Positions 44,567 to 62,521 of a stretch of DNA of 64,000 nt are shown here, one piece after another. Made by a program: the position numbers and the translations under genes. The notes under the pieces are model-generated. The model was given only the letters and a program-made list of their open reading frames with translations. It was not told the DNA's origin and searched no databases. Location: NCBI RefSeq assembly GCF_044324785.1, contig NZ_CP172127.1; one strand, written 5' to 3'. The DNA comes from Escherichia coli. Lineage in GTDB: Bacteria; Pseudomonadota; Gammaproteobacteria; Enterobacterales; Enterobacteriaceae. How positions within the stretch are numbered: the stretch's first letter is position 1; every line of letters begins with the position of its first letter.

Positions 44567-44938
44567 CTACTGTTCGCTTAGCTTCTGCTTCAGCAAGTAA
44601 CCTTCAAGCATCCAGATTTTGTTTACAGCATTCTGCCGGGCAATCTTCCGACCAATTTCTGCATCAAAATTTTCCGGACTTGCACAGGCACTCTCTCCGG
44701 TGACGGTGAAGCCGTTGCGCAGCACCAGGACGCAGAACGTCAGCAGAGAAAGTGATTCGTGCGGCTGGTAGTTTACCTCTCCGCCAGTATGTTTCGCTTT
44801 TATGGCTTTGCCAAAGGCACCATCCTCTGCTGTGAAATATGCCTCCTGAGCAATAATTCCTTCGATATGGTCTGGCGTAACGCGCGGTGCCGTTTTGCCT
44901 TTCTCAACGATTTCTTTTTCGATTTGCTGGTCGTTCAT
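44567..44938 (-). CDS. Hypothetical phage protein, 123 aa
   Basis: ORF with a plausible start; unknown function. Confidence 0.45.
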   Translation of the reverse strand: MNDQQIEKEIVEKGKTAPRVTPDHIEGIIAQEAYFTAEDGAFGKAIKAKHTGGEVNYQPHESLSLLTFCVLVLRNGFTVTGESACASPENFDAEIGRKIARQNAVNKIWMLEGYLLKQKLSEQ

Positions 44939-45117: not shown

Positions 45118-45603
45118 TTATTTCAGTTCGTTACCAGGCATTTCTTTTAGCTCTTTCAAATGACAACGATTGAGACTAAACCACTCCCCGTGCGACCTAT
45201 AGTTGTAATATTTTTGGTGCAATTTGGTTTCAAGCTCTCTATCGGCCGGAATCTTTGCAATTAGACTTAGCTTCCCACCACTCATGCGAGATATCTCTGA
45301 AATTCGTTTATTAACCCTGCGACTAAACCCTATTTTTGTTAGCCCACTATCTTCAGCATGCAGAACGTACACATATGATTTTTGCGAAGCACTGGGTGCG
45401 ACTTTGTTGTAATTAATCATGTCAAACATGAAGCCTTGCTTTAGCAAAGTTTCAAAAAAGATAGAATTAACACACCCATTCCTTCTCAGCTCTGAACTTA
45501 GCTTGTCAATTTCCTCTATGATGTCGCCAGACCCCTTTCCACTTATAAGAAAATCTTGGTACATGCGACCAATTCTTGAGGTAATTTCAACAAAGTTATT
45601 CAT
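45118..45603 (-). CDS. T5orf172 (GIY-YIG-like) domain protein, 161 aa
   Basis: C-terminal half YVYVLHAEDSGLTKIGFS...RISEISRMSGGKLSLIAKIP...ELETKLHQKYYNYRSHGEWFSL fits the T5orf172 pattern; strongly AT-rich relative to its neighbours. Confidence 0.6.
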   Translation of the reverse strand: MNNFVEITSRIGRMYQDFLISGKGSGDIIEEIDKLSSELRRNGCVNSIFFETLLKQGFMFDMINYNKVAPSASQKSYVYVLHAEDSGLTKIGFSRRVNKRISEISRMSGGKLSLIAKIPADRELETKLHQKYYNYRSHGEWFSLNRCHLKELKEMPGNELK

Positions 45604-45943
45604 AGCGTTTACCTTTTAGAAAGTGAGCCTGTCTCACAGAAAAGCCGCCCGAGAGAGGTCGCCACCTATAACGGCATTTCTCAGGCTCGCTTACTGAAAG
45701 GCTCTCGTTAATATGCGCGTGAGATGCGCTGTGAGATTCAGATATAAAAAAGCCCCGCGAATGCGAGGCTAAATCCTGGTGTTTGTGATGACTGGCTCTT
45801 ATCTCAACGCAGCCCCTTACCGCGCGCCAGATGCTCAATATCAAGCATCAGCAATGAGATGTTTAATCTGGATTCACTCCAGAAGTGATCACCACCCTGT
45901 CTACAGAGCCAGATGTGAAGGATGATGAGTAAAATTATCGCTA

Positions 45944-46381
45944 TCATCGAAGGCATTGCATCCTGATGTACTCCTGCAGGTAGTTAACCTGCGCGGTTAT
46001 CTTGTCGATTCCACTTCGGAGACGGTAATAATTGAGTTCAGCATCTGCTGTAAGTCCTGGGCTTTCTCCATCGCCCATGCCGCCGGCTCCGGTCGTTGAC
46101 TTTGCACAGGTGGCGGCGACTTGCAGGCGCTTACGCCCAGCAGAAACATCAGCACGGAGACTTTCGATAGTCGCGTTAGCATCAGCAAGCTCCTTTGTGT
46201 ATCTGGCGTCAAGTTCTGCTACATCACGTTGACGCTTCTGCATGTCAGCGATGATGGATGCGGCCTTATCGCGCTGCTCTTTGTAGGCGATGGCGTTATC
46301 ACGGTAATGATTAACAGCCCATGACAGGCAGACGATGATGCAGATAACCAGAGCGGAGATAATCGCGGTTAACCGACTCAT
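45944..46381 (-). CDS. i-spanin Rz (from ATG 46381)
   Basis: [39 protein letters not shown]... is near-identical to the lambda Rz N-terminus as I recall it. Confidence 0.85.
45997..46212 (-). CDS. o-spanin Rz1 (lipoprotein embedded in the +1 frame of Rz)
   Basis: Lipobox LLGVSAC followed by a Pro-rich region; lies entirely within Rz in another frame; the true start is probably an internal Met. Confidence 0.7.
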
Positions 46382-46469
46382 GACATCAACACCCCAACGG
46401 CCAGAAACCACGGCCACGCATCGTTGCCATTAAATGCGAGCAACGCTGCCATGAAAAAGCAAATCATGC

Positions 46470-46973
46470 TCATTGCTGCCCCCACAAACAGACTTCACGC
46501 TCAATCTCACGACGAGTCATCAGCCCTTTCCATTGCTTACCTCCAGCGTATGTCCAGCGACGTAGCTGGTCACATGCACCTTTGATATCGCCCTGGTTTA
46601 TTTTGCGAAGAAGCGTCGATGTTCTGAAATTGCCTGCACCCACGTTGTAGACGAACGAGTAAAGAGCGCCGCGCGTTGTTTCCGGTATATCGACTTTGAT
46701 GTACGGGTTAATTTGTCTGGCGACAGTGGCAAGGTCTTTATTCAGGAGGGCTTTGCACTCTGCTTCGGTATACGCTTTACCGAGCATGATGTCTTTTCCG
46801 GTGTGTCCGTGACATACAGTCCATACACCAACAATATCTTTGTATGGTATGTAGCTGACACCTTCCAGGCCATCGTTACCACTTGGTCCAGTGATTAACA
46901 CAGATGCTATAGCAATAGCCCCGCCACTTATCGCCGCTATTACGCTATTTCGTAGTGCCGGTGACATTGCCAT
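46470..46973 (-). CDS. SAR endolysin (phage 21 R-type lysozyme)
   Basis: N-terminal Gly/Ala-rich signal-anchor-release domain ([19 protein letters not shown]) followed by a T4-lysozyme-like catalytic triad region ([23 protein letters not shown]). Confidence 0.85.
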
Positions 46974-47148
46974 TCAATCTGTCCTCGCGCTCTTTGCGCT
47001 TGTAGTACCAGTTGATGCCAAATGTGCCGACAGTACAAAGAATACCAATGATGACAGCCCAGTCATTCAGGGAGAGAATGCCACCCATCGCAGTCAGTCC
47101 TCCGAAACTGTAACTGAACCATTCTCTGATTTTGTCCATACGGTACAT
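46945..47148 (-). CDS. Class II holin (pinholin-like) with dual-start motif
   Basis: 67 aa with two TM helices; N-terminus M-Y-R-M gives two in-frame starts separated by a basic residue; overlaps the endolysin start. Confidence 0.7.
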
Positions 47149-47392: not shown

Positions 47393-47468
47393 TGGTGCTG
47401 GTTAACGGACTTGAACCGCTAGCCATTCGCTTACAAGGCGACCGCTCTACCATTGGAGCTAAACCAGC
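47393..47468 (-). tRNA. Prophage-encoded tRNA (76 nt; anticodon read as UGU, Thr)
   Basis: Hand fold of GCTGGTT...AACCAGCACCA: 7-bp acceptor stem, D-arm GCTC/GAGC, T-arm AGCGG-TTCAAGT-CCGTT, CCA encoded; the anticodon stem has one mismatch. Confidence 0.55.
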
Positions 47469-47473
47469 ATGTT

Positions 47474-47548
47474 TGGCGGGACAGCGTGGACTCGAACCAC
47501 GATAAGAAGGTTAACAGCCTTCCGTAATGACCTTTATACGACTGACCC
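47474..47548 (-). tRNA. Prophage-encoded tRNA-like gene (75 nt; anticodon read as GUU, Asn), possibly degenerate
   Basis: T-arm CGTGG-TTCGAGT-CCACG and anticodon arm GAAGG-CTGTTAA-CCTTC are clean; the acceptor and D stems each have one mismatch; CCA encoded. Confidence 0.45.
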
Positions 47549-47611
47549 GAATAAAAAAAGCCACCGTTGCAACTTAAGAGTCACTAACGGCAGCTTACCT
47601 TCTAATTATTG

Positions 47612-48130
47612 CTAAATGGATAATTGCATGTCAAGGCTTTTAACAGCAACATGCTTAACTTTCTCAACACGTTTACGCATTTTGAAAGCATTTTGCATTG
47701 GCTGGTACAAAACAAATAACGATGCTTTCAGGATGTCGTCAATTTCGTTTCTACAGGTTGCCAGTGAAGGTTTTCTCCATCCCTCGCCACCACGTCCACA
47801 CATCTTGCGTGGCTTTGCAGTCGCGTGATAGTAGGATGCAATTGCTCGCTTAGATGAACCATGAGCGTAGTAGCTGAGGAGGATGCCAAAGGCTTTCTTG
47901 TCAATGCACATGACGGAATCGACGACCTGAGAAATCAACATTCCATCATCATCATTGCACATTGGCCTTGTCATAACTCTTCCCGGCTCTACGCTCTCCA
48001 TGAACTTCGCTATTACGCTGCTCATGCGCTTTTCCAGACGACCTGAATAAACCCATGCGCCCCACAGTTCAAGCCAGCCATTCAGCCACTCATGCTGTTC
48101 TTTGGTGAGGTTTAGTTCTCTTATGCCCAC
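47612..48130 (-). CDS. Late-gene antiterminator Q (933W/phage-21 type)
   Basis: Shares the WGAW...RP-C-DDD...LL-YY pattern with 933W Q as I recall it; positioned between the nin region and the tRNA/lysis genes. Confidence 0.7.
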
Positions 48131-48792
48131 TCGCCTTCTCCCTGTACCTGAATCAATGTGAGGTTTCCGCAGAACACTGAGCCGGTATCGATATACATTT
48201 GGTTGGCAAATTTAAGTGGTTTCACTGCTGGCGTATGACCAAAGATAAACGTGTCCGCGCCTTTAATTTCTTTCACGATCCCGTCTTGTGAGTTGCTGAT
48301 TCGTTCGCGGTTCCAGATTACCTGCTGATGATCAACTGGCTTTCCAAATTCGTATTCGTCACAAGGATAATCGGCGTGGCAGATGACATATTTTTTACCT
48401 TTGCTCACCAGTTCGATGATTAACGGAAGTTCTTCTGCTTTATGGGCAAGAGCTTTAGCCAGAATTTCTTTGTCGTAATCGAGATTAAAGAACCAACTAC
48501 CGCCATTAAGCAGCCAGTGATTGACGTTTCCACGCTCTGATAAGCCATCAATCATCATTTGCTCATGGTTTCCACGTACAGCTCGGAACCAGGGGAATGT
48601 GATTAATTCCAGACATTCGACGTTCTCTGTACCGCGATCGACCAAATCGCCAACCGAGATAAGCAGGTCTTTTTTGGTGTCGAATCCTATCGTCTCCAGT
48701 TTTTTCATCAGGTTCGTGTAGCATCCGTGCAGATCGCCAACTACCCAAATATTTCGGTATTTGCTGCCATCAATTCTTTCGTAATAGCGCAT
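48121..48792 (-). CDS. Ser/Thr protein phosphatase NinI (lambda PPase-like), from ATG 48792
   Basis: [29 protein letters not shown]...GDLVDRG...GNHE metallophosphatase motifs; near-identical to lambda NinI as I recall it. Confidence 0.85.
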
Positions 48793-48976
48793 CTCTTTCA
48801 CTCCATCCGCGATGAACCATGAGAACGTCGTTGACGATGGCGTGCATTTTCCCGTCTTTATCATCAACGTATTTTCTGACCGTACCGCGACTACATTTCA
48901 GTCTGCGTGCTACTTCTGTCTGGTTTCCGTATGCTTCAACGAGCATGTCTGGAATGGTTTTTACTGAGAACGTCAT
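48770..48976 (-). CDS. NinH (68 aa)
   Basis: [37 protein letters not shown] matches lambda NinH. Confidence 0.8.
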
Positions 48977-62431: not shown

Positions 62432-62491
62432 CTTATTGATTTAAATGGTGCCGATAATAGGAGTCGAACCTACGACCTTCGCATTACGAAT
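62428..62491. repeat. Prophage attachment-site repeat (attR): 64 bp overlapping the thrW 3' end
   Basis: Identical to 22652-22715. Confidence 0.85.
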
Positions 62492-62521
62492 GCGCTGCTC
62501 TACCAACTGAGCTATATCGGC
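62446..62521 (-). tRNA. thrW: tRNA-Thr (anticodon CGU)
   Basis: Reverse complement reads GCCGATATAGCTCAGTTGGTAGAGCAGCGCATTCGTAATGCGAAGGTCGTAGGTTCGACTCCTATTATCGGCACCA; canonical cloverleaf; sits beside proA. Confidence 0.9.

Follow-up and report, generated by a model that had tools for sequence, protein, structure and literature searches.

A probable PS34/Emek/BTP1-type lysis module in an Escherichia coli prophage, with a putative small membrane-protein gene between endolysin and spanin

The window analysed here, a 64,000-nucleotide (nt) stretch of Escherichia coli contig NZ_CP172127.1 (assembly GCF_044324785.1), carries a phage lysis cassette on its minus strand at positions 45944-47148, in which the holin gene S is followed by the endolysin gene R, a mini-gene that we call orf31 and the spanin gene Rz, with Rz1 embedded in Rz. 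Very probably, this interval is where a P22/HK620-like prophage keeps its late lysis module, of the type carried by phages PS34, Emek and BTP1, with five translationally linked genes. A preliminary description had named four of these genes, all of which were recovered on the minus strand at the same coordinates, but had missed orf31, a 31-amino-acid (aa) small membrane-protein open reading frame (ORF). The general architecture that it had proposed, comprising a class II holin with a dual-start motif, an endolysin of the signal-anchor-release (SAR) type and embedded Rz/Rz1 spanins, is sound, and the gene count needs correction from four to five. We regard the cassette itself as ordinary, with nothing new about it; the mini-gene is a modest lead and the sole element with discovery potential.

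Judged by nucleotide identity, the true closest relatives of the cassette are the lysis modules of the P22-like phages PS34, PS119, Emek and BTP1. Over ~1250 nt, identity amounts to 97.3% with Emek, 94.9% with PS34 and 93.6% with BTP1, and the closest cassette among E. coli genomes is 97.8% identical. The Salmonella P22-like phages PS34/PS119, vB_SemP_Emek, BTP1, ST104 and SPN9CC (genes 13-19-15) share 93-97% nucleotide identity with it, together with the same gene order and the same overlaps, and the gene orders annotated in related P22-like phages match that of the window cassette. With 93-97% identity to its counterparts in Emek, PS34 and BTP1, the module was already known, and its portrayal as a textbook cassette is fair: it is real and familiar. 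It is a near-copy of modules that were sequenced in PS34 and PS119 in the 1990s and that many prophages of Salmonella and E. coli contain. All four Pfam scores (PF16080, 75 bits; PF00959, 154 bits; PF03245, 118 bits; PF06085, 72.5 bits) far exceed their cut-offs; the gene calls are not due to chance, and PHROGs assignments agree with Pfam for the four classical genes. Within this group of relatives, Emek, BTP1 and PS34 carry orf31 as the window does, whereas ST104, MG40 and SPN9CC-type copies are without it, so that R overlaps Rz directly where the window has orf31 in between. The downstream gene also differs, encoding a T5orf172/MUG113 protein in the window as against Rha or KilA-N in related phages.

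The endolysin gene R (46470-46973, minus strand; 167 aa) encodes a GH24 muramidase (PF00959) that is, by sequence, a true phage-21-type SAR endolysin and an orthologue of R21. Phage 21 was represented in the comparisons by the R21 structures in the PDB and by prophage DLP12 of K-12. In a search of solved structures, R was ~96% identical over 165 residues to R21 (PDB 3HDE, full length, and 3HDF) and to RrrD (4ZPU); the catalytic triad E-8-D-5-T can be read from the sequence as E37/D46/T52, and Met3 of R is the counterpart of Met1 of R21. R shares 29 nt with the 3' end of S, and GAGGA stands 8 nt upstream of Met1 of R. Hydropathy places the predicted SAR domain at about residues 9-29 (nt 46887-46949, minus strand), a segment with 57% Gly/Ala/Ser/Thr. 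On a Hessa-type scale (kcal/mol, 19-mer sums), the best 19-mer at the N-terminus scored +0.8 kcal/mol in R and +0.78 in R21, as against -2.7 in the stable anchor of Rz. The Gly/Ala-rich SAR N-terminus described for this endolysin is therefore present, with a marginal hydrophobicity equal to that of R21; the preliminary description had held that an endolysin without SAR-like hydropathy would refute it, and since the hydropathy of this segment matches that of R21, no such refutation arises.

The spanin genes are likewise recognizable. Rz (45944-46381, minus strand; PF03245, phrog_13) encodes the inner-membrane subunit, 145 aa from its ATG, with an N-terminal transmembrane domain (TMD) at residues 4-22 that is stable by hydropathy. 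Called mechanically, the ORF reaches an upstream GTG at 46417, but it is the ATG that falls on the first residue of DLP12 RzpD in an alignment of the two proteins, which are 57% identical. Rz1 (45997-46182, minus strand; PF06085), the outer-membrane lipoprotein subunit of 61 aa, is contained entirely within Rz in another frame, as had been claimed together with the lipobox LLGVSAC (Cys20); the frame is +1, and a Shine-Dalgarno sequence, AAGGAG, is found 7 nt upstream of its start. It is 39% identical to RzoD of DLP12. Its start is offset by 199 nt and it spans 0.45-0.88 of the length of Rz, a position typical of embedded spanins (PMC6139136). As a separate observation, the only Cys of mature Rz1 is the lipid-modified Cys20, whereas RzoD has a second Cys after its lipid-modified one, and Rz has C92 and C143; disulfide-linked dimerisation of the spanin would need Rz, because Rz1 has no second Cys.

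Between R and Rz lies orf31 (46378-46473, minus strand), which is joined to its neighbours by ATGA overlaps at both ends, its ATG overlapping the stop codon of R and its stop codon overlapping the ATG of Rz. Because these overlaps couple it to R and Rz, its product would be made only together with lysis proteins. Annotation of the ORF is erratic. It appears as orf30 in Emek and is annotated in vB_ST415_1NRH; in BTP1 and RCIP0114 it is hidden by an Rz extended to the upstream GTG; and in PS34, where Rz (gene 15) is annotated from the ATG, it is simply left out. Among 5426 complete E. coli genomes, 59 carry orf31, and the Prokaryotic Genome Annotation Pipeline (PGAP) annotated it in none of them (0/59). 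ST104-type and DLP12 cassettes are without it, R overlapping Rz directly. Relatives with 43-48% identity occupy the same place and keep both ATGA junctions (UPF_BP1, Klebsiella phage RCIP0114 and other loci), and the holins neighbouring orf31 relatives differ among loci. A relative in SPN3UB also follows a lysozyme gene, but it starts 11 nt before the lysozyme stop codon, is without the ATGA junction and ends in TAG, with Rz ~300 nt further on. A second small unannotated ORF stands downstream of the SPN3UB mini-ORF (L007, 1752-1889; 45 aa, MIDISKLIRELRLMIEQLPNWKFILIWLVLFVAAIGYLIGQIRWW); it has one hydrophobic segment and ends directly before Rz.

A search with a four-sequence profile against cluster representatives of 1.84 billion proteins (E <= 1e-3) yielded an orf31 family of 231 cluster representatives, nearly all 31-80 aa long, with the core ...C-x3-A-x3-A-x2-G-x-D-G-W-G-W-F-L-F-V-G-V-L-L, in which W-G-W is nearly invariant. 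The window copy fits the build of this family, which consists of a hydrophobic helix, a polar turn, a W-G-W-type motif and a second short hydrophobic helix within ~30-60 aa, and AlphaFold2 (AF2), given a 109-sequence alignment, predicted helices at residues 2-15 and 20-30 separated by the turn N-G-N-D (mean predicted local distance difference test score (pLDDT), 88.6). The only database family that it resembles is phrog_14810, matched at E = 0.0034 by the window copy and at 1.5e-5 by a 35-aa member; neither Pfam nor NCBIfam has a model that matched the family, all names given to its members in databases are 'hypothetical' or 'uncharacterised', and neither the family motif nor the PHROG identifier gave a match in the searchable literature. 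Weak Pfam matches to TrbC/VirB2 in 12 of 109 family members were taken as hydrophobic noise. On sequence grounds, then, orf31 is a genuine but optional small membrane protein that would be co-translated with R and Rz.

What the protein does is a matter of weighing two readings. From the position of its gene it is plausible that orf31 modulates SAR-endolysin release or the timing of lysis, and a lysis-unrelated moron is about as likely. The more specific proposal, that orf31 and its family are a dedicated and so far unrecognised accessory of SAR lysis, a tiny hairpin in the membrane by which SAR-domain release or the triggering of the holin, and hence lysis timing, would be adjusted, we offer tentatively, as a minority possibility. 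The company that the family keeps speaks for such a role. In IMG/VR, a GH24 endolysin ends directly before a family member in 70 of 79 loci, and Rz follows immediately in 38, although the scan was biased toward relatives of the window copy; the 58 distinct endolysins in these loci all have hydrophobic, SAR-like N-termini and include both R21-like and P1-Lyz-like classes. Among remote metagenomic members, the order holin-lysozyme-miniORF recurred in three of seven.

Several observations weigh against a dedicated lysis function. The other four of the seven remote members sit among unknown small phage genes without a recognisable lysis cassette, and of 78 cassettes with the identical holin 25 have orf31 and 53 do not, so it cannot be essential. 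Cassettes that carry orf31 and cassettes that lack it can have identical SAR N-termini, for which reason co-adaptation of the SAR N-terminus with orf31 was rejected. The window copy also has A-W-P-W where the family consensus is G-W-G-W, and its own subfamily has accumulated too few substitutions to show selection (four non-synonymous, one synonymous). A further idea, that orf31 mimics the SAR domain because both have a Gly/Ala-rich helix followed by GNDG, was abandoned when relatives next to P1-Lyz-like endolysins, which have no GNDG, were found to keep the motif.

These facts leave considerable room for the alternative of a membrane moron with no part in lysis: orf31 might, for instance, encode a peptide for superinfection exclusion or host modulation and be lodged in a permissive R-Rz junction. 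We consider this alternative a serious contender, if short of an even chance. Its optional presence in otherwise identical cassettes, the absence of co-variation with the SAR N-terminus and the remote members found away from recognisable lysis genes are all as this alternative would have it. The ATGA coupling, by which the protein would be produced only with lysis proteins, fits it poorly, and so does the placement of most family members directly after SAR-type endolysins of both R21-like and P1-Lyz-like classes and beside various holins.

There is precedent for an accessory role of the kind proposed for orf31. Phage P2 has its lysA gene after the endolysin gene and before the spanin genes, where the window has orf31. 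Like orf31, Mu releasin and P2 LysA are membrane proteins other than holins whose genes adjoin that of the endolysin, and both modulate lysis, but neither has a sequence relationship to orf31. The releasin of Mu, gp25 (DUF2730), promotes release of the SAR endolysin and is thus a precedent for accessory membrane proteins in lysis (PMC9239132). orf31 matched no Pfam family, DUF2730 included, beyond hydrophobic noise, and it is only 31 aa long. The two proteins also differ in build: gp25 has 99 aa, one TMD and a 73-aa cytoplasmic domain, whereas orf31 has two short helices and no soluble domain.

The holin is the gene for which the label 'phage-21-type', apt for R, does not hold. S (46945-47148, minus strand) encodes 67 aa from Met1, or a 64-aa product if translation starts at Met4 (nt 47139), and by its Pfam assignment it belongs to the HP1 holin family and is not a relative of S21 at the family level. 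PF16080 (HP1 holin family, Phage_holin_2_3) matched residues 5-53 at 75.1 bits against a cut-off of 28.8 (model positions 1-49 of 56), PHROGs places the protein in phrog_20 (holin), and it is 100% identical to gp13 of PS119, ST104 and SPN9CC. Its N-terminus reads M1-Y2-R3-M4, and the two Met codons separated by Tyr-Arg fit the definition of a dual-start motif (one or two intervening codons including Lys or Arg), in agreement with the preliminary description. Since equivalent motifs recur beside SAR endolysins in diverged relatives of the holin (MYRM, MRM, MKM, MQRM, MTRM and MTKM), the motif is arguably functional. Two TMDs are predicted, a weak TMD1 at residues 10-28 (nt 47065-47121, minus strand; +6.2 kcal/mol, 47-52% G/A/S/T, Gly/Ser-rich) and TMD2 at residues 30-48 (nt 47005-47061, minus strand; +2.7), and the corresponding values for EssD, the S21-like holin of DLP12, are +6.5 and +1.0, so that S, by hydropathy only, has the weak-TMD1/stronger-TMD2 pattern of S21/EssD. 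In all 78 readable IMG/VR loci with the window holin, the same SAR endolysin follows directly, and a soluble endolysin follows in none (0/78).

The nearest experimental counterpart is the Hol/Lys pair of the Haemophilus phage HP1, which resembles the window in its PF16080 holin, SAR endolysin and overlapping hol and lys genes (PMC7312051). HP1 Hol, the founder of PF16080, kills cells without leakage of beta-galactosidase and works with a SAR endolysin, which is pinholin behaviour (PMC7312051). HP1 is unlike the window in that Hol has 78 aa and no dual start, the endolysin is P1-Lyz-like and not R21-like, and the phage is a P2-like myovirus (PMC7312051). From the predicted topology, the exclusive pairing with a SAR endolysin and these experiments on a distant relative, we infer with good reason that the window holin is a pinholin and forms pinholes; S would also use both start codons.

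Some evidence pulls the other way. The 29-nt overlap, which ties both genes, partly explains the pairing. Nor is the pairing proof of pinholes, since holins of the large-hole kind can also serve SAR endolysins. A Shine-Dalgarno-like AAGGGG upstream of S sits in a 5-bp hairpin, but this hairpin is no stabler than shuffled sequence (z = -0.35), and a regulatory RNA hairpin at the S start was dropped on that account. In addition, HP1 Hol, the only tested member of the family, is distant and has no dual start (PMC7312051).

It is in this light that we judge the alternative that S makes large, non-specific holes in the manner of lambda S or P1 LydA, the SAR endolysin being merely freed by depolarisation. 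SAR endolysins do function with canonical holins (P1 Lyz with LydA, R21 with S105), and the sum for TMD2 of S is less favourable than that of EssD, as such a holin might have it; yet a protein of only 67 aa with two predicted TMDs, the first as weak as that of S21, an HP1 relative that kills without beta-galactosidase leakage (PMC7312051) and the unbroken pairing with a SAR endolysin, even if partly due to the overlap, make large holes improbable, and we retain the pinholin reading.

Much less can be said for a strict phage-21 cassette, in which the holin would be orthologous to the S21 pinholin and all of the module homologous to S21-R21-Rz21-Rz1-21. Beyond the near-identity of R with R21 and the identities of Rz and Rz1 to RzpD and RzoD, it can draw on the start of the holin, MYRMDKI, which resembles MKSMDKI and MYQMEKI of S21-type holins, and on a weak match to PF04971 (P21 holin S) over TMD2. 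That match, however, reached only 19.5 bits, under the gathering cut-off of 26, against 75 bits for PF16080; BLASTP against EssD aligned only 27 residues at 30% identity (E = 0.024, single comparison); and no DNA homology is present upstream of the start codon, which also disposed of the idea that the window holin and S21-type holins have a 5' region in common. In a set of 84 loci with R21-like endolysins, moreover, S21-type holins pair with a different N-terminus of R and never with orf31. At the family level this interpretation is already refuted by the sequence data, and as an account of the whole module we give it hardly any credence. Comparison with phage 21 was the check proposed in the preliminary description, and its outcome is mixed, with ~96% identity to R21 for R, 57% and 39% identity to the DLP12 proteins for Rz and Rz1, and a holin that falls outside PF04971.

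The same 84 loci, 58 with the window-type holin, 20 with S21-type and 6 with other HP1-like holins, indicate where the two kinds of cassette part. The phage 21/DLP12 cassette (EssD, RrrD, Rz, Rz1) follows the same logic as that of the window, with a dual-start class II holin, a SAR muramidase and embedded spanins, but the holin is of the P21 S family instead of the HP1 family (PF16080), S and R overlap by 1 nt in DLP12 instead of 29 nt, and orf31 is absent from DLP12 and from every S21-type locus examined. The first ~10 residues of R also differ between the two and track the type of holin: MPPSLRKA/MSPSLRKA goes with S21-type holins and a different start with HP1-type holins (loci L011-L090; window 46945-46973, minus strand). 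Because these residues co-vary with holin type, we place a mosaic joint inside R, just past the S/R overlap. Across the set, orf31 was found in 0 of 20 S21-type and 30 of 64 HP1-like loci (Fisher p = 3e-5), but the case for tying orf31 exclusively to HP1-family holins loses force because the loci share ancestry and because the holin beside P0013 matches PF04971.

The least tenable of the alternatives, that orf31 is no gene but an ORF arisen by chance within a 92-nt spacer or an insertion scar, would suit its very short length, its omission from the annotations of BTP1, PS34 and the 59 E. coli genomes and the mostly non-synonymous substitutions of its own subfamily, but it is very unlikely given that the 35-aa members have saturated synonymous sites (proportion of synonymous differences, pS, 0.45-0.86) with few non-synonymous changes (pN 0.075; dN/dS 0.05-0.11), that the 231 clusters have a common length and a near-invariant W-G-W core, that members only 45% identical still keep the frame and the two ATGA junctions and that AF2 returns a hairpin at a pLDDT of 88.6.

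Taken as a pinholin-SAR endolysin module with an accessory mini-gene, the cassette would operate as follows. Q-dependent late transcription, from a promoter at the Q end, would express the operon. S would yield a 67-aa product from Met1, which has the extra Arg3 and is likely the antiholin, and a 64-aa product from Met4, likely the holin, both in the inner membrane; the weakly hydrophobic TMD1 would leave the bilayer as in S21, and TMD2 would then oligomerise into small depolarising holes. R would be exported by Sec, and its N-terminal SAR helix would hold it, still inactive, at the periplasmic face until depolarisation releases and activates it, as for R21, in which release and activation by depolarisation have reportedly been shown. 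The Rz-Rz1 spanin complex would then disrupt the outer membrane, and the orf31 protein, co-translated with R and Rz, would modulate the SAR-endolysin/holin step. The proposed endolysin and spanin steps draw on near-identity or clear homology to experimentally studied proteins, and the holin step on topology, on the way the genes pair and on a tested but distant relative.

The surroundings of the cassette, 25 kb of P22/HK620-like prophage, fit a late lysis module. Upstream lies the gene for a Q antiterminator (47612-48130, minus strand; PF06530), at the 3' end of which a promoter-like site, TTGACA-18-AATAAT (47605-47634, minus strand), matches the consensus at 11 of 12 positions; to judge from lambdoid gene order, this site, identified by consensus match only, is probably the counterpart of pR' and would drive the lysis operon. 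Between Q and the holin gene, the leader contains tRNA-Thr(TGT) and tRNA-Asn(GTT) (47393-47548, minus strand), besides which an Rfam scan found nothing, and BTP1 has the same order of Q, tRNA-Asn, tRNA-Thr and s as the window. About 175 nt downstream of Rz, a terminator-like GC-rich hairpin (45751-45770, minus strand) has an 8-bp stem with 6 GC pairs followed by the T-run TTTTTATATC, again a consensus match only. Beyond it are genes for a 161-aa protein with the T5orf172/MUG113 domain (45118-45603, minus strand) and for a Gp49/Sf6-gp66-family protein (44567-44938, minus strand). Two further features of the region were noted. A 248-aa ORF (48121-48867, minus strand) overlaps the start of Q and contains, from its sequence, GDLHG/GDLVDRG/GNHE motifs typical of lambda-type Ser/Thr phosphatases; and a tRNA-Thr(CGT) at 62446-62521 (minus strand), near the far end of the prophage region, may be a thrW-type attachment site.

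These results bear on how lysis modules of this kind are described. A common enterobacterial holin of the window type should not carry the S21-type label, and the recombination joint between holin modules is placed inside the endolysin gene. A conserved mini-gene is routinely missed, or masked by an over-extended Rz, in phages whose gene inventory is believed to be complete. If it is true that orf31 affects SAR release or lysis timing, the mini-gene would be a new player in a paradigm system.

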